Shown here: one piece after another, positions 3,621 to 55,888 of the stretch
Layout: each line of letters starts with the position of its first letter
Numbering within the stretch: the first letter of the stretch is position 1
Assembly (NCBI GenBank): GCA_046092585.1
Contig: JBJTDZ010000120.1
Coordinates: 6,606 to 70,605 of the forward strand
From: Pirellulales bacterium
GTDB taxonomy: Bacteria; Planctomycetota; Planctomycetia; Pirellulales; UBA1268
Direction: 5' to 3'
Length of the DNA: 64,000 bases
Position numbers and translations under genes: made by a program
Notes under the pieces: generated by a model
The model's database searches: none
What the model saw: the letters and a program-made list of their open reading frames with translations, nothing else
What the model was told of the DNA's origin: nothing

Positions 3621-4271
3621 ATGGGGGGCGCACCGGGTGAATCCCTGGATGCGGGGCAGGTCGCCCCGCGAGGGCACCTCGTCGGGCTTCCGGATCGGCC
3701 CCCGTTCATGCCCCCTTCCTCGGCGATCGGCGAGCAGTTCAACCGCTGGGCGGCAGAGCATGTCACGGTTCTCTACCGCGTGGCCTATCGGCTGCTCGGC
3801 GATCCGCACCACGCCGAAGACGTCCTCCAGGACACGTTTCGCTCCGCGTGGACCAGCCGGCATCTCTACGACGGCAACCGCAACGAGCGGGCGTGGCTCC
3901 TCGCGATCCTGCGTCGCCGCGTGGCCGACCACTGGCGGCATCGCGGGGGCCGCGAACTGGTCACGGCGTCCGACGCCCTGCCAACGCCCGCGATCGACGG
4001 CCGCGACCCCTTCCGCGACGAGTTCTCCGGCGCGATGCAGCGGGCGCTCGCCACGCTGCCGGAGGAGATCCGGGAGACGCTGCTCCTGGTGGTGGTCGGC
4101 GAACTTACCCACCAGGCGGCGGCCGACCTGCTCGGCATCCCGCTGGGAACCGTCCTCTCGCGGGTCAGCCGCGGCCGCAGCCGGCTGCGCGAGGCGCTGC
4201 TGCACGAGGGATGCCGCCCCGACGGCCATCACCTGAAAAACACCACGACTACGCGCGATGGCCATGCCTGA
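3621..4271 (+). CDS. ECF-type RNA polymerase sigma factor (sigma-70 family)
   Basis: Region 2-like VLYRVAYRLLGDPHHAEDVLQDTFRSAW. Region 4 HTH LPEEIRETLLLVVVGELTHQAAADLLGIPLGTVLSRVSRGRSRLREAL. The true start may be the internal ATG at 3708 (MPPSSAIGEQF..). The 3' end overlaps the next gene by 14 nt. Confidence 0.85.
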   Translation: MGGAPGESLDAGQVAPRGHLVGLPDRPPFMPPSSAIGEQFNRWAAEHVTVLYRVAYRLLGDPHHAEDVLQDTFRSAWTSRHLYDGNRNERAWLLAILRRRVADHWRHRGGRELVTASDALPTPAIDGRDPFRDEFSGAMQRALATLPEEIRETLLLVVVGELTHQAAADLLGIPLGTVLSRVSRGRSRLREALLHEGCRPDGHHLKNTTTTRDGHA

Positions 4272-6434: not shown

Positions 6435-6479
6435 GCACGTCTGCCCGCATCACGCCCGCACCCCTCCGCCTTCCGCACC

Positions 6480-9400
6480 ATGCGCACCGCCTTTCTCGCG
6501 TCGAGCGCCCTCGTGCTCTCGCTGGCAGCCAGTTTCGCACCTGCCGCCGAGCCCGCGTCCGAGCCCGCGTCCGAGTCCGCGTCCGAGGCGTCGACACGCT
6601 CGTTGATCGAGGGCCTCGAAGAGCGGCAGATGCCCGACGTGATGCTCTGGGTGGTCGAGCGGGCCGAAAAGAACCCGGCCACGTCGCAGACCCTGAAGGC
6701 GGAACTGCCCTTCCTCAAGGCGACGGCCCTCGTGGCGGCGAGCCGCACCGAATCCGACTCCGCGAAACGCGCCGCCATGCTCGACGAGGCGGAAAAGGCG
6801 ATCGATGCCTTCCTGGCGACCAAGCCGGCCGGCAGCCTCGCCATCGCCGCCTATTCGCAGAAGGCCAACCTGCTCGTCGAACGCGGCCGCGGCAAGGTCG
6901 AACTGGCCAAGCGACCCGGCCAGGATCCGGAGAAACTCGGCCCGGAGGCGGTGGCCTTCTTCGACAGCGCCCTCGAGACGCTCAAGAGCACGCTCCCGGC
7001 CGACCACCAGGGTGAGATCACCGACGTCACCAATGCCGAGGATGCCGTCCGCAGGGAACTTCGCCGCGTCGATGCCGAGATCGCGAAGGTGAAGGAGGAA
7101 GCGAAGGCCGCGGCGAAGGACGAGGCTCCGAAGCTCTCCCCGGCGCAGAAGGTCGTCATGGAGAAACTCGAAGCCGAACAGGAGGCGTTGCGGGCCAAAC
7201 TGCTTTCTGCGCGGCTGATGACGGCGGGCGTCTACTTCGAGAAGTCGAGGGCCTACGCGGCCGGCTCGAAGGAGGCGAACGCCGCCCTGGTCGAGTCGAC
7301 GAATCTCTTCGAGGCTCTCGCCGAGAAGTACGCGAGCAAGGGTGCCGGCATGTTCGCCCGCTATTACTGCGGCCGCAACGAGGTGCTGCTCGGCAAGCAC
7401 GAGGCGGCGGTCGAGACCCTCACGCCGGTCGTCCTCATCGACGGCCGCTCGCCGCTCGCCATCGGGCTCAAGGCCAAGGGGGTCAACACCACGCTCGAGG
7501 CGTTGCTCGCCCTCGCCGCCGCCGAGAAAGACGCCGCCAAGCTGAGCGACCTCTATGCGAAACTCGACGACGACATCCGCAAGTTCGCCCTCACGCCGGC
7601 CGAGAAACTGCCCGGCCGCAGGCTCGATGCCGAGTGGCTCGCGCTGAAATACCGTGCGGCCACGTTGCTGGAGCGGAAGGCGGCGTCGCTCGACGCCAAG
7701 GAGAAAACCCTGAGGACGACCCTGCTCCGCGATGCCAAGAAGCTCGCGACGGAGGTGACGGCGGCCAACAAGGACTTCGCCAAGGAGGCCCGCGAGTTGG
7801 CGGCCAAGCTCGGCAAGGACCTGCCGGCAGGATCCGAGGAGAAGGATTTCGCCACGCTCTGCGCCGATGCGAAGCTCGCGTTCACCGCCATGCAGGAGAA
7901 GCAGGCCAGGGCCAAGCAACTGGTGGCCGAAGGCAAGGCGAGCGAGGCGGCGGAGGTGGTCGAGCAGTCGGCGCCCGATCGCGACACCGCGATCAAACTC
8001 TTCCAGGAAGCCCTCGCCCTTCCCACCAACGGGGAGACCGACGAGGCCGCGCTCAACTCGGCCCGTTCCCTGCTCACGTTCCTGTTCTACGACGCGAAGC
8101 GGTTCGCCGAGGCGGGCGACCTTGGCAGGCTCCTCACGGAGAAGTACCCCAACGCCCCCGGCAGCCGGCAGGCGGCCAAGGTGGCCCTGGCGAGCCTGCA
8201 GAGCCTCGCCCAGCAGCGGGATGCGGCCGTTGCCAAGCCCGCGAGGGAAAAGCTGCTCGACTTCGCCGCGCTCATGGCCAAAACATGGCCGGCCGAGGCG
8301 GAGGCGGGCGACGCGCTCACGGTGATGCTCAACGCGGGCATCGAGGCCCGCAGCGGCGAGCAGATCGTCGCCCTGATCGAGAAGGTGCCGGCTGAATCGC
8401 CGCGGCGGGCGGATCTGCTGATGCGGGCAGGCACGGCCCTCCGCCGCGAGGTCCAGGACGCTCGGAAGCCGGACGCAACCACGAAGACCCCGGCGGAGAC
8501 CATCGCCCGCTGGGATGCCCTGGCGAAATCGTCGCTCGACGAGGGCCTGAACGCCATGGATGCGGCCGCCGCATTGCCGCCGGGTTCCGCGGCGAAGGTC
8601 GCGGTGTCGGCTGCCCTGACCCGCGCCCAGATGGCCCTCGCCGACGACGAGCTCGACACGGCCGACAAGCTGCTCACGAACAAGGTCTACGGCCCGTGGA
8701 TCGTCGCGACCACGAGCGAGGATCCGGCGCTCGCGCAAGGCTCGCTGGCGGAGAGCTCGCTCACCGTCGCCCTGCAGTACTTCATCGAGGCCCAGAAGTT
8801 CGACGACGCCCAGGAGGCGATGGCCGCCCTCGAGAAGGCCGCCGGCCAGGGCGAGGCGGCGTCGGCCAAACTGACCGCGATGTACCTCTCGATGGGCCGC
8901 AACCTCCAGGAGCGTCTCGAGCAGCTCGGCTCCGGCGACAAGGCCGGCTCCCCCGAGATCCGCGAGCAGGCGAGCCGGATTCTCGGTGGTTTCGAGAAGT
9001 TTCTCGAGAGCATCGCCAATCGCGACAAGAAGACCTCCTCGCAGATCTGGGTCGCCACCACGTATCTCATGCTCGGCTCCGGCAAGGGCACGGGGGCCAT
9101 CGTGGCCAAGTCGAAGGCGGAGCAGTACCTCGATCGCGCGGCCGACACCTACGCGGGGCTTCTCGAGCGGAAGGACGAGGCGGGCGTTCCCGATGCCGAG
9201 CGGCAGGATCTGGAGCGATTCGAGCCCTCGATTCGCCGCAAGTTGGTGAGCCTGTTCAAGGAACGCGGCAAGTGGGACGAGGCGCAGGAGCAGATGAACT
9301 GGCTCCTGGCCGATGCCAAGCGGCAAAACTCGCTCGACATCCAGATCGAGGCGGCCGAGCTCCTGCAGGCGGCGGGCATCGCCGCGAAGGACGCCAAGGA

Positions 9401-12913: not shown

Positions 12914-12939
12914 AAGCCCAATCGCGTAAGCGATGGGGA
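12914..12939 (+). repeat. 26-nt GC-rich hairpin with GUAA (GNRA) loop, identical copy at 48355-48380
   Basis: AAGCCCAATCGCGTAAGCGATGGGGA read at both loci. Stem is CCCAATCGC / GCGATGGGG (one mismatch) with loop GTAA. It lies between the convergent exbD and xerD ends. Confidence 0.65.
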
Positions 12940-19647: not shown

Positions 19648-19779
19648 CCGAGCGGTGACCGCGCTGCTCCAAGCCGTAGGCCGTGAGGCCTCGGGCCGGT
19701 CCGGGTGGCGTTGCCATCGGTGTGGTGCTGATTTCACCACCGGCCCCACGCCTTACGGCGTTGGGCTATGACAAAGCCC

Positions 19780-19973
19780 CGCCGCCGCAGGCTGACAGCC
19801 AGCCGCCGCGAGGGGCTGCCCGTGCCCAGTGGCCGGACGTTCGCTGCGCCCATCGTGGGCTTCGCTCACTCGATGCCGGCTGCGCTTCGACATCCTGTCT
19901 CCGCTGGCCGCCAACGCCGGCCACGGGGCACGGGCAGCCCCTCGCGGCGGCTGGCTGTCAGCCTGCGGCGGCG
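19780..19973. repeat. R1 palindromic intergenic element, archetype copy (48-bp perfect inverted arms + 98-bp core)
   Basis: Left arm 19780-19827 (CGCCGCCGCAGGCTGACAGCCAGCCGCCGCGAGGGGCTGCCCGTGCCC) is the exact reverse complement of 19926-19973. The core CCGGACGTTCGCTGCGCCCATCGTGGGCTTCGCTCACTCGATGCCGGCTGCGCTTCGACATCCTG.. recurs at four other loci. Confidence 0.85.
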
Positions 19974-21154
19974 CGGGCGAGCATCGCCGGCACGGAGTCG
20001 GCGTTGGGCGGACCGCAGCGACGCGCCGGGGAGAACGGCGCCGGATCGATCGCGGGCACCCGCCCCTCCACGAGATCGGCGATCATCACGGCCGTGCCGG
20101 TCGACTGGTGGAGGCCCGCGCGAAAATGGCCGGCGGCGACGAAGGCGTTCGCGGCGGCTGGAACCGCGCCGATGAACGGCAGGCCGTCGGGCGTGCCCGG
20201 TCGCAGGCCCGCCCACGCGCGTTCCGGCGCAACGTCGGCCGCACGACCGAGCAGCTCGATCGCCACGTTTCGCAGCCGGGCAATCGCCTCCTCGGTGGGC
20301 ACCGGCTCGAAGCCGATGTCCTCGAGGGTGGAGCCCACGAGCAGGTGCCCGTCGTCACGGGGCACGAGGTAGTCGAGGCCCCGGTTGACGATCCTTCCGA
20401 GCGGCGGCCCCGACGGCCGCAGCAGCACGATCTGCCCGCGGATGGGCCGCGTGTCGAGCGCGAGGCCCAGCCCGTGGGCCAGCGGGCCCGACCAGGCGCC
20501 CGCCGCCACGATGTACGCGTCGGCTCCGACACGTTCCGGCGAGCCGGTCACCACCGCTGCCAGGCACCGCACGCGGCCGCCTTCCACGTCGAGCCCGGTC
20601 ACCTCGGTGCCGCGGTCGATCCGCACGCCCCGCGCCAGGCAGGAGTGTTCGAGGGCCCGGAGGTGACGGGGGGAGCGAAACTGCTGCTCGTCGGCCAGCA
20701 GCAGGCCCCCGAGCACCTCGCCCCGCTCGACCGCGTCGGCGAGCGCCGGCTCGAGAGCACCGAGAGCGCCGGCATCGAGCAGGTCGCAACGGGCATTCCG
20801 CCTGCGCCACTCGCCGGCCTGCTCCGGGAGACGGGCCAGCGCCTCGTCGCTCGTCGCCAGGTGGAGGCCGCCGCAGCGGCGGAGTCCGTTGTCAATGCCC
20901 GTCTCCGCGAGAAGTTCCCGCGACCAGTCGGCATGCAGCCGGTCGCTCCAGGCGGTGAGCGCCTCCCCGGGCGTCATGCCGGGATGCTCTGCCGCCGGCG
21001 GAAAGATGCCGACGGCCGCCCACGAGGCGACCTGGTCACGGGGCTCGCGGGCGAGCACCCGCACCCGATGGCCGCGGCCCGCAAGCTCCCGGGCGATCGA
21101 CAGGCCCACGATGCCGCCACCGACGACGCAGCAGTCAGCCATGGATGTCGTCAC
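19958..21154 (-). CDS. FAD-dependent glycine/D-amino-acid oxidase family protein (ThiO-like)
   Basis: GTG start. N-terminal dinucleotide fold DCCVVGGGIVGLSIARELAGRGHRV. DAO-family length and C-terminal ..GLRPGTPDGLPFIG...AAGHFRAGL. The specific ThiO assignment is tentative. The stop codon lies inside the right arm of the R1 repeat. Confidence 0.72.
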   Translation of the reverse strand: MTTSMADCCVVGGGIVGLSIARELAGRGHRVRVLAREPRDQVASWAAVGIFPPAAEHPGMTPGEALTAWSDRLHADWSRELLAETGIDNGLRRCGGLHLATSDEALARLPEQAGEWRRRNARCDLLDAGALGALEPALADAVERGEVLGGLLLADEQQFRSPRHLRALEHSCLARGVRIDRGTEVTGLDVEGGRVRCLAAVVTGSPERVGADAYIVAAGAWSGPLAHGLGLALDTRPIRGQIVLLRPSGPPLGRIVNRGLDYLVPRDDGHLLVGSTLEDIGFEPVPTEEAIARLRNVAIELLGRAADVAPERAWAGLRPGTPDGLPFIGAVPAAANAFVAAGHFRAGLHQSTGTAVMIADLVEGRVPAIDPAPFSPARRCGPPNADSVPAMLARAAAG

Positions 21155-21177: not shown

Positions 21178-22185
21178 TCAGGCATTGGTGGCCACGTCGG
21201 GCGAGTCGGCCACGTTCACCCACACGTGCACGTGCGGGGCGCCGCGGAAATGCCAGACGAAGGCCGGGCCTTCCAGCCGCCAGTTGTCCCAGACGCCGTC
21301 GTTGCCGAGGTCTCCATCCTTGAAGAAGGCGAGCCGGCAGCGATCCAGCCCGCCCTGCCGCGACAGGCAGCCGCGAACCTCGTCGCGGTCCACCGTGCGG
21401 TAGGGCTCGAGCAGCACCCCCAGCACCCGCTCCAGGTCGGCCCGCTGGTCCGGTGCGAGATCCGACACCGGGATCCCGGCCGGCTCGGCATGCGGCTTGC
21501 GGAAGGCGATGGCGTTCTCCTTCGGCAGCGAGGCGGCGAGGGCCGCCTCCCGCTGCCGACCGTCGAGCATCGCGAACACGGCGTTGGCCGCGACCGCCTG
21601 CGGCCAGAAGACGTTGCCGGCGTGATCCTTCTCCTCGTTGAAGCCGCCGGCGTCGTGGCCGTAGAAGATCGGGCCGCCGAAGGCCACGTGCTCGGCCGAG
21701 TCGCCGTCGCAGCGGAGCGTCATGTGACGCCCCGTGAGCAGGAACTGAAATTTCCCGCTGCCGGGCTCGCCGATCAGTGCGATCGACTGGTCGTGGCCGA
21801 AGCCGCCGGTGTCGTCCTCCAACTGCCGGTCGAACCGGGCATGCCAGTCGGGCTCGATGAGCTGCTCGAAGATCTCTCGCACCAGCCGCTGCTGATCCTT
21901 CGTGAAGAAGTCACTCGCCACCGCAGGCTCGGTCGCGTTCCAGTTGTTGCCCACCCGCGTGCGCAGGAGGCCGAACTTCGGGTGGACGTAGTCCCAGGGA
22001 ACGCAGACCGCCTGCCGCTGGGCGGGCGTGAGCGAGGCATGCAGCCGACCGGCGAGCGTCTCGGCCGACTCCGCGGCGGCCTCGGCCCCGACGGTGAAGG
22101 GGTTGCGCAGCAGGGCCGCCATCGCCCCCGCCCCTGCGGCCCGGAGGACGCCTCGCCTCGTCACATCGGTCGCATGCAGATCCAT
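21178..22185 (-). CDS. Tat-signal exported protein, DUF3500-like (tentative)
   Basis: ATG at 22185 is in frame within listed ORF 21178..22668. Twin-arginine leader MDLHATDVTRRGVLRAAGAGAMAAL. The C-terminal LEGPAFVWHFRGAPHVHVWVNV resembles the His-rich end of DUF3500 proteins. Confidence 0.6.
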   Translation of the reverse strand: MDLHATDVTRRGVLRAAGAGAMAALLRNPFTVGAEAAAESAETLAGRLHASLTPAQRQAVCVPWDYVHPKFGLLRTRVGNNWNATEPAVASDFFTKDQQRLVREIFEQLIEPDWHARFDRQLEDDTGGFGHDQSIALIGEPGSGKFQFLLTGRHMTLRCDGDSAEHVAFGGPIFYGHDAGGFNEEKDHAGNVFWPQAVAANAVFAMLDGRQREAALAASLPKENAIAFRKPHAEPAGIPVSDLAPDQRADLERVLGVLLEPYRTVDRDEVRGCLSRQGGLDRCRLAFFKDGDLGNDGVWDNWRLEGPAFVWHFRGAPHVHVWVNVADSPDVATNA

Positions 22186-22289
22186 GGAATCGACCCTCGC
22201 GGAAAGACACCGGCCCCGCGGGCCGTTCTGCGACAGCCTACGCCCTTCCCTCGCCGCGTGCCACGCGCGATCGCCGCGGCGCAGCCGGC

Positions 22290-25341: not shown

Positions 25342-25385
25342 GCCCGACGGCTCACGGTCTGCAGTGTGATTCCGTCCGGACGCAG

Positions 25386-25522
25386 CTCGGGGCTGCCCAT
25401 GCCCCGGGAGCCGGGCTCGGCGGCCAGCGGAGGCAGGATGCCGGAGCGCAGCCGGCGTGCAGTGAGCGAAGCCCGGGATGGGCGCAGCGAACGTCCGGCG
25501 ACGGGGCATGGGCAGCCCCGAG
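25386..25522. repeat. R1 palindromic intergenic element, complete copy (opposite orientation to 19780 copy)
   Basis: 21-nt perfect terminal inverted repeat: CTCGGGGCTGCCCATGCCCCG (25386-25406) / CGGGGCATGGGCAGCCCCGAG (25502-25522). The core is the reverse complement of the 19828-19925 core with few changes. Confidence 0.85.
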
Positions 25523-25572
25523 CGTGAGGCACCGGAGCCCGCGGCCTTACGGCCGGTCGGCTTTTTCGGGAG

Positions 25573-25691
25573 CAGGATGGCGAAGCGCAGCCGGCGTGCA
25601 GTGAGCGAAGCCCGGGATGGGCGTAGCGAACGTCCGGCGACGGGGCATGGGCGGCCCCGAGCGTGAGGCACCGGAGCCCGCGGCCTTACGC
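25573..25691. repeat. R1 element, 5'-truncated tandem second copy
   Basis: A roughly 119-nt unit starting CAGGATG at 25434 repeats from 25573 (offset 139 nt) with about five substitutions by eye. The second unit lacks a partner left arm. Its tail GCCTTACG contains the stop codon (25686-25688) of the antiporter gene. Confidence 0.8.
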
Positions 25692-27038
25692 CCGCAGGAA
25701 GCCGCGGGAGACGAGCGTCGGCTCGTGCTGGCTGCCCCGCAGCATGCGGGCGGCCAGGGGCGTGGCCATGAGCGTGGTACCGATCGCCATCAGCACCAGC
25801 ATGCAGTAGACAGCCGGCGGGATCACCCCGAGATCCATGCCCACGTTGACCACGATCAGTTCCATCAGGGCCCGCGTGTTCATGAACACGCCCACGCACG
25901 AGGCCTCGCCGGCGGGCATCCCGCCGAGCCGGGCGGCGAGGCCGCAGCCTCCCCACTTGCCGAGCACGGCCACCGCGAAGACCGCCGCGCACCAGCCGGC
26001 CGCCTCGGGCGTGCCCAGCGAGCCGACGTCGGTCCGCAGGCCGGTGAACGTGAAGAAGATCGGGAGAAAGAACACCGTGACGAAGTCGGCGAGGTGCGCG
26101 GCGACGGCCTCCCGCACCCGGGGCACTCCCGAGAGCGACGCGCCGACGAGAAAACCCCCGAAGATGGCGAAGATGCCGATCCGGCTCGTGATCCAGGCGG
26201 CCATGAGCACGACCGCGAGCACCAGCGACAGCGTGCCGAGCGGCAGCCGCGGCGGCCCGTCCGCCTCGTCCCGCACCGATCGCTCGAGCACCGGCAGCAG
26301 CAGCGGCCTCACCACGAACAGGCAGGCCACGGCGAAGGCGAGGGTGGCGGCGACCATCCAGGCGATCCGCCCCACCTCGAAGTTTCCCGCGGCGAGGGCC
26401 GACACCGCGGCCAGGAGGGTCCAGCCGACGGCGTCGTCGCACGCGGCGGCCGCGACCACCGTGGCTCCGAGCGGTGTGTGCTGCATCCCCATCTCGATGA
26501 GAATCCGGCCGAGGATCGGAATCGCGGTGATCGACATGGCAGTGCCGACGAAGAGCGCGAACGATCGCGGGTCGATGGACTCCCCCCCGAGCGCCCCCAG
26601 CCGCGGCGCCATCGCCAGCGCGAGGCCGTAGCCGAGGGCGAAGGGGGCGACGATCCCGGCCAGCGAGATCCCGGCCGCGAGCCGGCCCTGCCGGCGCACG
26701 TGGGAGAAGTCGAACTCGATCCCGATCAGGAACAGGAGCAGCACGAGGCCGATCTGGCTGAAGCTGGCGAGCGCGGCCTCGAGCGTGCCGCCTGCCGCCG
26801 CGGGTCCGCCCCGGAAGATCGCGGCGAAGACGTCGGGAAACCAGGCCCCGAGCACCGACGGCCCCAGCACGAGCCCGGCCACGATCTCGCCCACCACGCT
26901 CGGCTGCCGCAGCCACCTGGCAACGATCGCCCCCGCCCGCGCGGCGAGGATGATCACCACGAGTTGCAGCAGCAGGGGCCGGAGCATCTCCTCACGACCG
27001 GCGGCGAGGAGGATCGGGGGGGCGAAAAGCGGGGGCAT
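25686..27038 (-). CDS. monovalent cation:proton antiporter (CPA2 / Kef-NapA type)
   Basis: Multi-pass membrane protein with N-terminal LLQLVVIILAARAGAIVARWLRQPSVVGEIVAGLVLGPSVLG typical of Na+/H+ exchanger family proteins. The ATG at 27038 (MPPLFAPP..) was chosen from within listed ORF 25686..27185; start uncertain. Confidence 0.8.
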   Translation of the reverse strand: MPPLFAPPILLAAGREEMLRPLLLQLVVIILAARAGAIVARWLRQPSVVGEIVAGLVLGPSVLGAWFPDVFAAIFRGGPAAAGGTLEAALASFSQIGLVLLLFLIGIEFDFSHVRRQGRLAAGISLAGIVAPFALGYGLALAMAPRLGALGGESIDPRSFALFVGTAMSITAIPILGRILIEMGMQHTPLGATVVAAAACDDAVGWTLLAAVSALAAGNFEVGRIAWMVAATLAFAVACLFVVRPLLLPVLERSVRDEADGPPRLPLGTLSLVLAVVLMAAWITSRIGIFAIFGGFLVGASLSGVPRVREAVAAHLADFVTVFFLPIFFTFTGLRTDVGSLGTPEAAGWCAAVFAVAVLGKWGGCGLAARLGGMPAGEASCVGVFMNTRALMELIVVNVGMDLGVIPPAVYCMLVLMAIGTTLMATPLAARMLRGSQHEPTLVSRGFLRA

Positions 27039-31911: not shown

Positions 31912-31956
31912 CGCCCGACCTGAGCGAGCGATCACGCCAGCTCAACTGGTGACGCG

Positions 31957-32096
31957 GGCTCGGGGCTGCCCATGCCCTCTCGCTGGACGTTCGCCTCGGC
32001 CTTCCGGGCCGAGGCTCTCTGCACGTGCGCTGCGCTTCGGCATCCTGCCTGCGCTTGCTTCCGTAGCCCGCTCGAAGGCACGGGCAGCCCCGAGCC
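31957..32096. repeat. R1 palindromic intergenic element, diverged copy
   Basis: Terminal inverted repeat GGCTCGGGGCTGCCCATGCC (31957-31976) / GGCACGGGCAGCCCCGAGCC (32077-32096) with one mismatch. The core keeps GGACGTTCGC...GCTGCGCTTCGGCATCCTGCC. The central hairpin is replaced by GCCTCGGCC-ttccg-GGCCGAGGC. Confidence 0.75.
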
Positions 32097-32173
32097 ACAG
32101 TCAATCGCGGGGAAAGTCGCTGTGCCCGAGGCCTCATGGCTATCGGTTCCTGCCGTGGACTCGCAGGAGGTCT

Positions 32174-32310
32174 GCGAGGGGCTGCCCATGCCCGAGAGCC
32201 GGCGTTGCTGACCAGCGAAGGCAGGATTCCGAAGCGAAGTCAGCAACGAGTGATCGAAGCCCAGGATGGGCGCACCGAACGTCCGGCGACGGGCGTGGGC
32301 AGCCCCTCGC
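32174..32310. repeat. R1 palindromic intergenic element, copy in opposite orientation to 31957 copy
   Basis: GCGAGGGGCTGCCCATGCCC (32174-32193) / GGGCGTGGGCAGCCCCTCGC (32291-32310), one mismatch. The core reverse complement reads GGACGTTCGGTGCGCCCATCCTGGGCTTCGATCACTCG...TTCGCTTCGGAATCCTGCC. Confidence 0.8.
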
Positions 32311-32328
32311 CTGCGGGCGTGAGAGGCG

Positions 32329-39651: not shown

Positions 39652-39735
39652 AGGCGAGGGGGTCGGCGAACGCTCGAGGAGCCTTGGGCGTATCCTCGCC
39701 CCGGCGACGAGACTTTTGCCGCCCCCGAGCCGGTG
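39652..39735. repeat. R2 84-nt intergenic repeat, copy 1
   Basis: AGGCGAGGGGGTCGGCGAACGCTCGAGGAGCCTTGGGCGTATCCTCGCCCCGGCGACGAGACTTTTGCCGCCCCCGAGCCGGTG. It is identical by eye to 42026-42109 and near-identical to 55783-55888. Confidence 0.85.
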
Positions 39736-42025: not shown

Positions 42026-42109
42026 AGGCGAGGGGGTCGGCGAACGCTCGAGGAGCCTTGGGCGTATCCTCGCCCCGGCGACGAGACTTTTGCCGCCCCC
42101 GAGCCGGTG
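42026..42109. repeat. R2 84-nt intergenic repeat, copy 2
   Basis: Same 84 nt as 39652-39735. It ends 35 nt before the ATG of the pyruvyl-transferase-like gene. Confidence 0.85.
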
Positions 42110-48354: not shown

Positions 48355-48380
48355 AAGCCCAATCGCGTAAGCGATGGGGA
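48355..48380 (+). repeat. 26-nt GNRA-loop hairpin, second identical copy
   Basis: AAGCCCAATCGCGTAAGCGATGGGGA, identical to 12914-12939. It is preceded by GATGCCGGAG, which also begins the R1 core in the 25434 unit. Confidence 0.65.
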
Positions 48381-48404
48381 TTGCGTCACCGTTACCGCAG
48401 GCTC

Positions 48405-48535
48405 GGGGGTGCCCACGCCCTGCCGCCGGACGTTCGTTCCGGCCTTCCAGGCCTGCACTCACTGCATGCTGGCTGCGCTTCGCCATCCCTGGCTCCGCTT
48501 GCCATCAAGCCCGGCGACAGGGCATGGGCACCCCC
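48405..48535. repeat. R1 palindromic intergenic element, diverged copy upstream of recA
   Basis: GGGGGTGCCCACGCCCT (48405-48421) / AGGGCATGGGCACCCCC (48519-48535), one mismatch. The core reads CCGGACGTTCGTTCCGGCCTTCCAGGCCTGCACTCACTGCATGCTGGCTGCGCTTCGCCATCCCTGGCTCCGCTTGCC. Confidence 0.75.
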
Positions 48536-48623
48536 TCGCCGGCCGGCAAGGCACATCTTGGCGTGCCAGGATGGCACCGCCCGCACGGCATGGCCCACCT
48601 TGGCTGGGCCATCGCCGTGCCAA

Positions 48624-55782: not shown

Positions 55783-55888
55783 AGGCACGGGGGTCGGCGA
55801 ACGCTCGAGGAGCCTTGGGCGTATCCTCGCCCCGGCGACGATCCGAAGGAGTCGGTCCTCCGACCGACTTTTGCCGCCCCCAAGCCGG
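55783..55888. repeat. R2 intergenic repeat, copy 3 with 24-nt insertion
   Basis: Same sequence as R2 apart from a few substitutions. TCCGAAGGAGTCGGTCCTCCGACC is inserted after GGCGACGA, creating a perfect 8-bp hairpin AGTCGGTC-ctcc-GACCGACT. The copy ends 150 nt upstream of tRNA-Asp. Confidence 0.8.

Follow-up and report, generated by a model that had tools for sequence, protein, structure and literature searches.

What is the long palindrome that encloses the stop codon of a thiO-like gene in this planctomycete contig, and is it a singular structure or one member of a repeat family? In the stretch of DNA analyzed here (64,000 nucleotides, referred to as the window, with a base composition of about 70% GC throughout), an inverted repeat occupies positions 19777 to 19976, and its two arms of 60 nt (19777 to 19836 and 19917 to 19976) are 97% complementary. 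The complementarity is perfect over 48 nt (19780 to 19827 versus 19926 to 19973), and the thiO stop codon (19958 to 19960) lies within the right arm, both as stated in a preliminary description of this DNA. The inner 17 nt of each arm, together with about 95 nt of sequence between the arms, are repeated at other sites in the window. We propose, with a probability of roughly 70%, that the repeated part is a nonautonomous mobile repeat resembling REP, REPIN, and ERIC elements that is maintained as a folded single strand, and that the additional arm length at 19780 was produced by a local template switch. This proposal is based on a repeat family, a fold with covariation, an asymmetry between the strands, presence/absence polymorphism, and the lack of both a target-site duplication and a neighboring gene for a mobilizing enzyme.

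A covariance model of the unit identified five full copies (125 to 132 bits) and one truncated copy (46 bits) in the window, and no other credible match in the 64 kb. In the following, the F strand is the strand reading GGGGCTGCCC…GGACGTTCG, and the R strand is its complement. Copy 1 is located at positions 19808 to 19945 on the plus strand (model match at 19804 to 19949, 128 bits, and also alignments and structure counts), where its F strand leads from a GCGA foot through GGGGCTGCCC to GGGCAGCCCC and a TCGC foot. Copy 2 lies on the minus strand at 25385 to 25523 (match at 25381 to 25527, 125 bits, and alignment), copy 3 on the plus strand at 31958 to 32095 (match at 31954 to 32099), copy 4 on the minus strand at 32174 to 32310 (match at 32170 to 32314), and copy 5 on the plus strand at 48401 to 48539 (match at 48397 to 48543, and alignment), the last with a compensatory change (GGGGG.../...CCCCC) in its terminal stem. 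The five sites at which the preliminary description had placed a recurring core are therefore the five full matches to the model. Its separate truncated copy near 25573 is also present, as the 5′ two-thirds of a unit on the minus strand (25571 to 25662), but it does not stand alone: it is contained in a tandem duplication with a period of 139 nt (25428 to 25555 versus 25567 to 25694, 95% identity). The terminal motif GGGGSTGCCCRYGCCC occurs 11 times in the window, compared with 0.16 occurrences expected by chance. The genes around the copies are ordinary housekeeping genes. Four of the five full copies are indeed in gaps between convergent genes, as had been claimed: one between genes for an AAA-ATPase and ThiO, one between genes for TrpA and a Na-H exchanger, and two between genes for a guanido-kinase and a cytidylyltransferase. 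Copy 5 is located upstream of recA and downstream of gltX, with both genes on the minus strand.

The unit, of about 140 nt, is predicted to adopt a Y-shaped fold, in which a terminal stem of 18 bp is continued by an extension of 5 bp and carries two hairpin arms; in copy 1, these elements are the terminal stem P1, the extension P1b, hairpin A, and a stem B placed around a hairpin C. The extension reads GCCGG/CCGGC. Hairpin A occurs in several variants (among them GGGCATCCTGCCC, GGATGCCATCGTGGCATCC, and CCTCGGCC…GGCCGAGG), stem B is, for instance, GCTGAC/GTCAGC or GATGCCGCC/GGCGGCAT, and in hairpin C GGCATCCTGCC alternates with GCCATCCTGGC, while the unpaired linkers ACGTTCG and GCTCACT (F strand) are nearly invariant. 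The structure was derived by hand and is backed by counts, since the automatic consensus of RNAalifold, which mispaired the inner part of the terminal stem, was rejected.

In the main alignment, which contains 74 full copies with 8-nt flanks, the 49-pair structure has 90.3% of its cells paired, and 23 pairs have changes on both sides. Compensatory cells number 308 in this alignment, compared with 108 ± 9 in shuffled alignments and 33 to 52 when the partners were slid by 1 to 3 columns, although such cell counts overstate the number of independent events because the copies share descent. A second set of 109 metagenome copies, whose alignment was fitted to the model and hence leans toward it, gave 89.8% paired cells, 39 pairs with changes on both sides, and 456 compensatory cells versus 150 in shuffles. 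Compensatory cells are thus about three times as frequent as in shuffles in both alignments, and the central hairpin, described earlier as changing in sequence while staying pairable, behaves in this way in the alignments of 74 and 109 copies. The terminal inverted repeats are likewise present in both sets as the conserved 18-bp stem. As the variation in this stem pairs from arm to arm and not inside one arm (for example, pairs 13-143, 19-137, and 20-136), the long stem is the constrained structure.

The two strands of the unit are not equivalent. Among the helix mismatches as read on the F strand, there are 84 A·C versus 38 G·T and 235 pyrimidine·pyrimidine versus 28 purine·purine oppositions, and on the R strand the same mismatches take the form of G·A pairs and of G·U or G·T wobbles. 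At its base, the stem of most copies reads GCGA-GGGG…CCCC-GAGC on the R strand, which amounts to tandem G·A pairs, and the alternative forms are fully paired; the foot takes the form GYGA on the R strand, which begins with GYGA-GGGG, and GNTC on its complement. The R strand is purine rich (42% G and 18% A), and its fold is the more stable one in 70 of 74 copies (mean difference, 8 kcal/mol); the folding z-scores range from −6 to −9. The asymmetry in mismatches and folding therefore indicates that one strand, in single-stranded form, is either selected or mutating while exposed. The assignment of that strand is not clean. Thermodynamics and mismatch types favor the R strand, and other counts point to the F strand: the nearest gene stop is in the F sense for 35 copies versus the R sense for 19, and small hairpins located within 120 nt of the unit are co-oriented with the F strand in 23 cases versus 3.

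The unit is by no means confined to the window. When one genome of each species was scanned for the terminal motif with GGACGTTCG after it, at least 119 loci in at least 54 assemblies (counted by accession prefix) matched. All of the matches listed are MAGs of 64 to 74% GC and of Planctomycetota type, and nearly all of those listed are labeled Planctomycetota, Pirellulales, or Planctomycetaceae and come from lakes. A few of the matched MAGs are labeled “Kuenenia” or “Chitinophagaceae,” and these labels are at odds with their base composition. The identical pattern matched at least 120 contigs (62 to 74% GC) from lake metagenomes in the JGI collection, and a search of viral contigs, plasmids, and phages gave no match. 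With at least 54 MAG assemblies and at least 120 metagenome contigs carrying the unit, it is a dispersed family instead of the product of local duplication, as the preliminary description had supposed. Several of the scanned loci are syntenic with the window at 74 to 87% DNA identity, and, apart from one identical short contig, the best ThiO homologue has an identity of 80%, which places the source of the window among the uncultured members of this freshwater clade. In 643 kb of loci from the genome scan, the model found about 120 copies on the forward strand, of which about 20 are in addition to the one per locus selected by the scan; together with the density in the window (about five, or five to six, copies per 64 kb), this suggests, by extrapolation, a copy number on the order of hundreds per genome. 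Searching the window against Rfam 15 at the gathering threshold, including its ribozymes and dispersed RNA motifs, we recovered a single tRNA; in E-value mode the sole match was MIR918 (52 bits versus a threshold of 268), a spurious match of the generic long-hairpin kind. By eye, no hammerhead-like core could be recognized on either strand, in agreement with Rfam. As neither Rfam nor the literature searched contains a match, the family, which the first reading had been unable to name, is apparently undescribed. Its hosts are uncultured, high-GC Planctomycetota of freshwater.

Differences between orthologous sites indicate that the copies come and go. In the gap between thiO and the AAA-ATPase gene, the window has one copy abutting the thiO stop codon; locus L121 contains a copy that belongs to another subfamily, is located about 75 nt downstream, and has the opposite orientation; locus L120 has no copy within the 154 nt present; and locus L123, whose flanking genes are 89 to 90% identical to those of L121, has none. 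The copy at 31958 is absent from the orthologous site of L101. For the copy at 32174, L101 has a counterpart in the same place and orientation that belongs to an entirely different stem-B subfamily, which suggests replacement or independent arrival. Conversely, L080 has a repeat cluster at the site equivalent to 22065 to 22288, where the window has none. The presence/absence polymorphism that the preliminary description had proposed to look for is thus found among orthologous sites of the window, L101, L121, and L123. A clean pair of empty and filled sites was sought in the near-identical locus pairs L052/L075, L070/L079, and L121/L123 and was not found, as the DNA 3′ of the stop codon is unrelated within these pairs, even where the genes of a pair are 92 to 97% identical. 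Since relatives differ completely in the intergenic DNA around the copies, the ends of the mobile unit are defined by the consensus only.

The unit is extragenic, is present in high copy number, and occurs in mosaic clusters with other repeats. In some copies, a nested palindrome of about 35 nt (CGACCAATCCGC-NNNN-GCGGATCGGTGCCCG) is present in either orientation, as an exact replacement of the loop of hairpin C or inside hairpin A or stem B. A version of hairpin A with an insert of about 85 nt is shared by three MAGs, one of which has it at two loci, and composite versions therefore multiply as well. Among the roughly 58 copies for which both neighboring genes were called, 26 are in convergent gaps, 24 to 26 in co-directional gaps, and 4 to 6 in divergent gaps. 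Taken with the orientations relative to the nearest stop codon, these counts show that the unit is enriched 3′ of genes, yet not locked to the direction of transcription.

How the unit enters its sites was addressed with the boundaries of the 74 copies, on which both target-site duplication and a palindromic target were tested and rejected. No direct repeat of 3 nt or more was found at boundary offsets of 0 to 6 in any of them, which answers in the negative the search for target-site duplications proposed earlier; the “TC” common to the flanks belongs to the consensus sequence itself, in which GA is its alternative. In 73 of the 74 copies, the flanks cease to be complementary 4 nt outside the GGGG/CCCC edge. 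Farther out than this, they form 2.9 pairs per 12 positions, compared with 3.2 in controls, which is the level expected by chance. Hence, the unit does not insert into existing palindromes, and the earlier idea that it might enter preexisting hairpins is not borne out.

Three other explanations must be weighed against these observations. An ordinary MITE, that is, a deletion derivative of an IS that retains the same terminal inverted repeats and is moved by a DDE transposase, would likewise be small, noncoding, multicopy, and dispersed, with terminal inverted repeats such as the 18 to 23 bp found here. The lack of a target-site duplication of at least 3 nt at any offset leaves this explanation unsupported, and no transposase is located beside the copies. 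Moreover, no longer element bearing the ends of the unit (GGGGCTGCCCRYGCCC termini) was found among about 250 left ends; the candidate long pairs are spurious, and three long elements apparently bounded by the terminal motif (L028, L032, and L033) are chance matches in GC-rich DNA. An enzyme of the DDE type that reads the termini would require neither covariation in internal helices nor an asymmetry between strands, and we therefore regard an ordinary MITE as quite improbable. The preliminary description had offered “MITE- or REP/BIME-like” as a single category; the habit it captured, a dispersed and covarying repeat of REP, BIME, or MITE type, stands, but the ordinary MITE is not supported. 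Still less probable, to the point of being hardly credible, is a bidirectional intrinsic terminator between convergent genes, which had also been considered earlier. The very stable, GC-rich stem and the convergent position of four of the five copies in the window and of 26 of the approximately 58 classified copies are what such a terminator would lead one to expect. This reading is weak, however, because the stem is followed by TCGC or TCAC and not by a T/U run on either strand, and because co-directional gaps are nearly as frequent as convergent ones and some gaps are divergent. In addition, one gap contains two copies in succession, the unit is missing from many orthologous gene ends, and termination has no need for a three-way junction of 140 nt with invariant loops.

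A more serious competitor, though in our judgment an unlikely one, is a structured RNA module that acts in transcripts (as a 3′-untranslated-region stabilizer, an RNase site, or a protein-binding RNA), is selected by the host, and has spread by duplication or recombination. Strong covariation in all helices, the low folding z-scores, the preference for positions 3′ of genes, and the properties of the purine-rich strand, which tolerates G·U and G·A and folds better by 8 kcal/mol, would all be expected of such an RNA, and a host function would likewise be consistent with a core that is nearly invariant in many species. However, the strand that faces the nearest gene may be one or the other (35 versus 19), and the unit is found in co-directional and divergent gaps too; five to six copies per 64 kb lie behind unrelated housekeeping genes; presence or absence varies between close relatives; derivatives with nested insertions multiply; and no Rfam family, ribozymes included, matches. 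We therefore return to the mobile repeat as the preferred reading, under which the unit would spread through a folded single-stranded intermediate recognized in trans, with an HUH-Y1 transposase that is RAYT-like and perhaps of “class 3” as the best candidate enzyme, and mRNA 3′ ends would be affected, if at all, only incidentally.

A gene for such an enzyme was sought around the copies. No recurrent protein family was found beside them, either among 948 open reading frames (ORFs) of the first set or, once the set had been enlarged, among the 530 ORFs lying no more than 600 nt away, and the largest clusters of nearby ORFs are generic (ABC ATPases, kinases, and short-chain dehydrogenases). No homologue of Y1, RAYT, or IS200 proteins was detected by tblastn in the window or in about 1.65 Mb around some 250 copies, with seeds that comprised 11 to 15 RAYT, TIRYT, and IS200 sequences from a paper supplement plus database matches and included no class 3 member, nor did a regular expression for HUH…Y motifs find anything in the window or at about 245 loci. 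The search for a cognate transposase recommended in the preliminary description thus returned neither a neighboring transposase nor a homologue in that span. With hundreds of copies per genome, it is not improbable that the enzyme gene was missed in about 1.65 Mb. The TIRYT of R. baltica was used as a query for planctomycete homologues, and the two homologues of highest GC content are from genomes of 60 to 62% GC and are bounded by AAAAGGGGTCAGGACTC, consistent with the published GGGGWSAS motif (PMC3733652). TIRYT was rejected as a partner, as the planctomycete homologues inspected are flanked by another repeat (GGGGTCAGGAC) and the unit is not nearby.

The literature offers one candidate, the class 3 TnpA-Y1 proteins. 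They are found mainly in Planctomycetes and Acidobacteria, where their “REPtron-like” hairpins reach high copy number, and their genes are flanked by these atypical REP-like hairpins, which have GNRA loops and a foot of the form CnGA at the 5′ end, as in CACGAGCCGGAAGCGTGAGCGACGGGT from Planctopirus (PMC6006769; Quentin et al. 2018). Small hairpins with GNRA loops, such as AAGCCCGGAGCGCAAGCGATGGG and AAGCCCAATCGCGTAAGCGATGGGG, adjoin the Y-shaped unit and are very similar to the Planctopirus example; if R is the active strand, their orientation is opposite to it, an arrangement known from BIME arrays. The unit itself shares with class 3 hairpins a planctomycete host and a high copy number, and its R strand starts with GYGA-G, which resembles their CnGA foot (PMC6006769), in the form of ACGAG or CCGAG. 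However, those hairpins are only about 26 to 30 nt, the Y-shaped unit is five times longer with a foot that differs at the first base, and its body differs as well, such that the adjoining small hairpins fit the class far better. It is possible, but we doubt, that the unit is the substrate of an uncharacterized single-strand mobilization system (candidate, a class 3 HUH-Y1 enzyme reading the three-way junction) or else a new kind of self-spreading structured RNA. Either, if true, would explain why unpaired motifs are nearly invariant across many species.

Among known bacterial repeats, several have parallels with the unit. ERIC (IRU) elements are imperfect palindromes of about 127 bp in enterobacteria that are intergenic, cotranscribed, and conserved in sequence across species, with longer variants that arise from insertions at fixed internal sites; to our knowledge, the agent that mobilizes them has not been identified. 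Their size, intergenic location, cross-species conservation, and internal-insertion variants parallel those of the unit, but the likeness is one of habit only, as they occur in another phylum, there is no detected sequence relation, and the unit has clearer covariation over multiple helices and a higher local density. Target-site duplications are made by Correia (NEMIS) elements (TA in this case), by RUP, and by other MITEs of bacteria. They resemble the unit in length (100 to 160 nt), terminal inverted repeats, intergenic location, and cotranscription with their neighbors, and they differ in that the unit is without such a duplication.

The closest parallel in behavior is with REPINs and REP-BIME arrays and their RAYT (TnpA-REP, HUH-Y1) transposases: these repeats are also noncoding, extragenic, and of high copy number, with inverted ends that pair into a long hairpin (PMC3733652, PMC6006769). 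They likewise lack a target-site duplication and lie 3′ of genes, and the strand asymmetry of the unit fits a single-stranded substrate such as theirs. As in BIMEs, the unit forms mosaic arrays together with small palindromes, most of which are oriented opposite to it, and as in REPINs, the whole unit is the repeated entity, with arm-to-arm pairing backed by covariation. In contrast, the unit is about 140 nt with a structured three-way-junction core, whereas a REPIN is a pair of REPs, each of 20 to 40 nt, with a loose spacer; its foot is GYGA/GNTC rather than GTAG or CGTC; its covariation supports pairing between the arms and not a hairpin within each arm; and no RAYT gene flanked by the unit was found in about 1.65 Mb around copies. 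The unit is REPIN-like in its working and lacks defining features of a REP, of a classical MITE, and of an intrinsic terminator.

These results provide a well-defined repeat family, with a covariance model and a predicted fold, for a phylum in which small mobile DNA has received very little attention, and the unit is a candidate natural substrate with which the role of class 3 HUH-Y1 enzymes could be explored. They further indicate that intergenic DNA 3′ of genes turns over fully between lake genomes whose genes are 90 to 97% identical, and that the unit seeds misannotated ORFs and can reshape gene ends.

The long arms at 19780 themselves are a secondary, local one-off event. Extended complementary flanks occur in only 1 of the 74 copies, namely, copy 1, and the outer 31 nt of the arms, singled out early on as particular to this copy, have no other occurrence in the window or among the first 119 loci retrieved. 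The right outer arm (19946 to 19976, minus strand) comprises the last six or so codons of thiO (…ARAAAG), the stop codon at 19958 to 19960, and 12 nt downstream of it (19946 to 19957). The left outer arm (19777 to 19807, plus strand) is the inverted copy of this 3′ end, with its perfect part beginning at 19780. The right arm is ancestral and the left arm is the copy, because the C terminus of ThiO (…MLARAAAG) is retained in homologues (…MLARAATS, …MLARAASA, and …MLARAAAE…). The left foot of copy 1 has the minority GCGA form, which is the exact complement of TCGC, the right foot of most copies; a fold-back of synthesis within the stem, followed by outward copying, would be expected to leave this form. 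Quasi-palindrome template switching is a process in which short or imperfect inverted repeats become longer and perfect through fold-back copying. The perfect 48-nt arms and the converted foot of copy 1 resemble its products, although here about 31 nt of new inverted sequence are needed. Judging from the product, the left outer arm was probably made by fold-back template switching, in which a nascent strand would have folded back on the hairpin of the unit and copied outward. Copy 1 would thus illustrate cleanly, in natural DNA, how a hairpin can nucleate an inverted duplication that enters a coding sequence.

Assembly behavior bears on the same structure. K-mer assemblers break at perfect palindromes, and repeats at the density found here will break assemblies, as is seen in an independent contig that terminates within the palindrome. 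This Logan contig, from another run, contains the identical thiO end and arm, followed by the left-arm variant, at which point it stops; this independent assembly is modest evidence that the arm structure is real.

Hairpins of the Y-shaped element, the dispersed ~140-nt non-coding repeat built from a terminal stem, hairpin A and a stem B capped by hairpin C, host other repeats in loci fetched from Planctomycetota MAGs and metagenome contigs (L-numbers; coordinates local to each locus). A palindrome of ~35 nt, CGACCAATCCGC-NNNN-GCGGATCGGTGCCCG, lies nested within the element in both orientations; it either takes the place of the ATCC loop in hairpin C or is located within hairpin A or within stem B, on the 3' strand (L014:104-277, L051:3956-4128, L066:336-468, L071:7323-7495, L099:991-1164, L050:7556-7731, L057:3101-3274, and L039:2266-2466). 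This nesting suggests that the hairpin loops serve as insertion targets. The loop of hairpin A also carries an ~85-nt insert, TGCGGCTTTCGCGCTGTCGCC…GGGCAAAGCCCGGCTTAGGGATT, at two loci in one MAG (L027:139-357 and 6440-6659) and in two other MAGs (L060:7382-7603 and L022:3609-3831); this version may be a composite subfamily that propagates as such, or else another nested element.

Pieces of the element are also tandemly repeated. Its first ~39 nt, from the terminal motif to GGACGTTCG, form arrays at L007:1307-1420, L021:3554-3625, L059:2181-2340, L109:5890-6100, and L158:1618-1825, the repeated unit in some of them being this 5' piece plus a small hairpin, and such arrays suggest that the 5' part of the unit undergoes slippage or recurrent abortive events. 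In the window, a 128-nt tandem duplication (25428-25555 versus 25567-25694; 95% identity, period of 139 nt) spans part of the element and one small GNRA hairpin; as we read the sequence, the Na/H-exchanger gene has its stop codon (about 25686-25688) inside the duplicated hairpin unit.

These small hairpins, which have GNRA loops and, at the 5' end, a foot reading ..AAG (e.g., AAGCCCAATCGCGTAAGCGATGGGG and AAGCCGACCGGCCGTAAGGCCGCGGGC), constitute a second repeat family, found in the window on the plus strand at 12914-12938, 19671-19696, and 48355-48379 and on the minus strand at 19743-19768 and 25537-25563, as well as in many fetched loci (89 regular-expression matches in 855 kb). In Planctopirus limnophila, very similar REP-like hairpins have been reported beside genes for class 3 TnpA-Y1, an HUH-Y1 transposase type. 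Relative to the nearest gene stop, they showed no orientation bias (29 versus 28); those adjoining the Y-shaped element share the orientation of its reference (F) strand in 23 cases versus 3.

Canonical REP sequences of the GTAG type (GTAGCACAGGTTTTCAACCTGTGC) occur in the right flank of the Y-shaped element in L036, L095, L097, and L017 and at L080:~2030-2060. As they share intergenic clusters with the element, the lineage hosting it carries classical REPs too. Planctomycete genes for TIRYT (Y1_Tnp) are flanked by inverted repeats of the AAAAGGGGTCAGGACTC / GGGGTTCTGATCCCCTTTT type (L126:2900-3000 and 3703-3760; L128:2960-3000 and 3691-3705), which fit the published GGGGWSAS motif (PMC3733652) and are unrelated to the Y-shaped element.

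DNA downstream of genes turns over very fast. In the pairs L052/L075, L070/L079, and L121/L123, the genes are 90 to 97% identical and the intergenic DNA directly past the stop codon is wholly unrelated, filled with differing repeat units that include, in L052, tandem arrays of CCCATACAAGCCCGGAGCGCAAGCGATGGGATAGG.

The Y-shaped repeat also breaks short-read assemblies, as exemplified by an independently assembled contig that carries an identical thiO gene (L249:1200-1302; Logan SRR29270205). This contig stops within the palindrome, 42 nt beyond the thiO stop codon, having changed from the inner variant of the right arm to that of the left arm. Several repeat-carrying MAGs of 64 to 70% GC are recorded as Kuenenia stuttgartiensis (“Candidatus Kuenenia” label: L009, L017, L022, L038, L041, L061, L067, L077, L084, and L095) or Chitinophagaceae (L001, L019, and L119); mislabelling or bin contamination is the probable explanation.

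An 84-nt repeat of the window (AGGCGAGGGGGTCGGCGAACGCTCGAGGAGCC…; 39652-39735, 42026-42109, and 55783-55866) is unrelated to the Y-shaped element. Two copies are identical and the third is 75% identical; all three apparently lie upstream of genes, and the repeat may represent a shared leader or promoter region.
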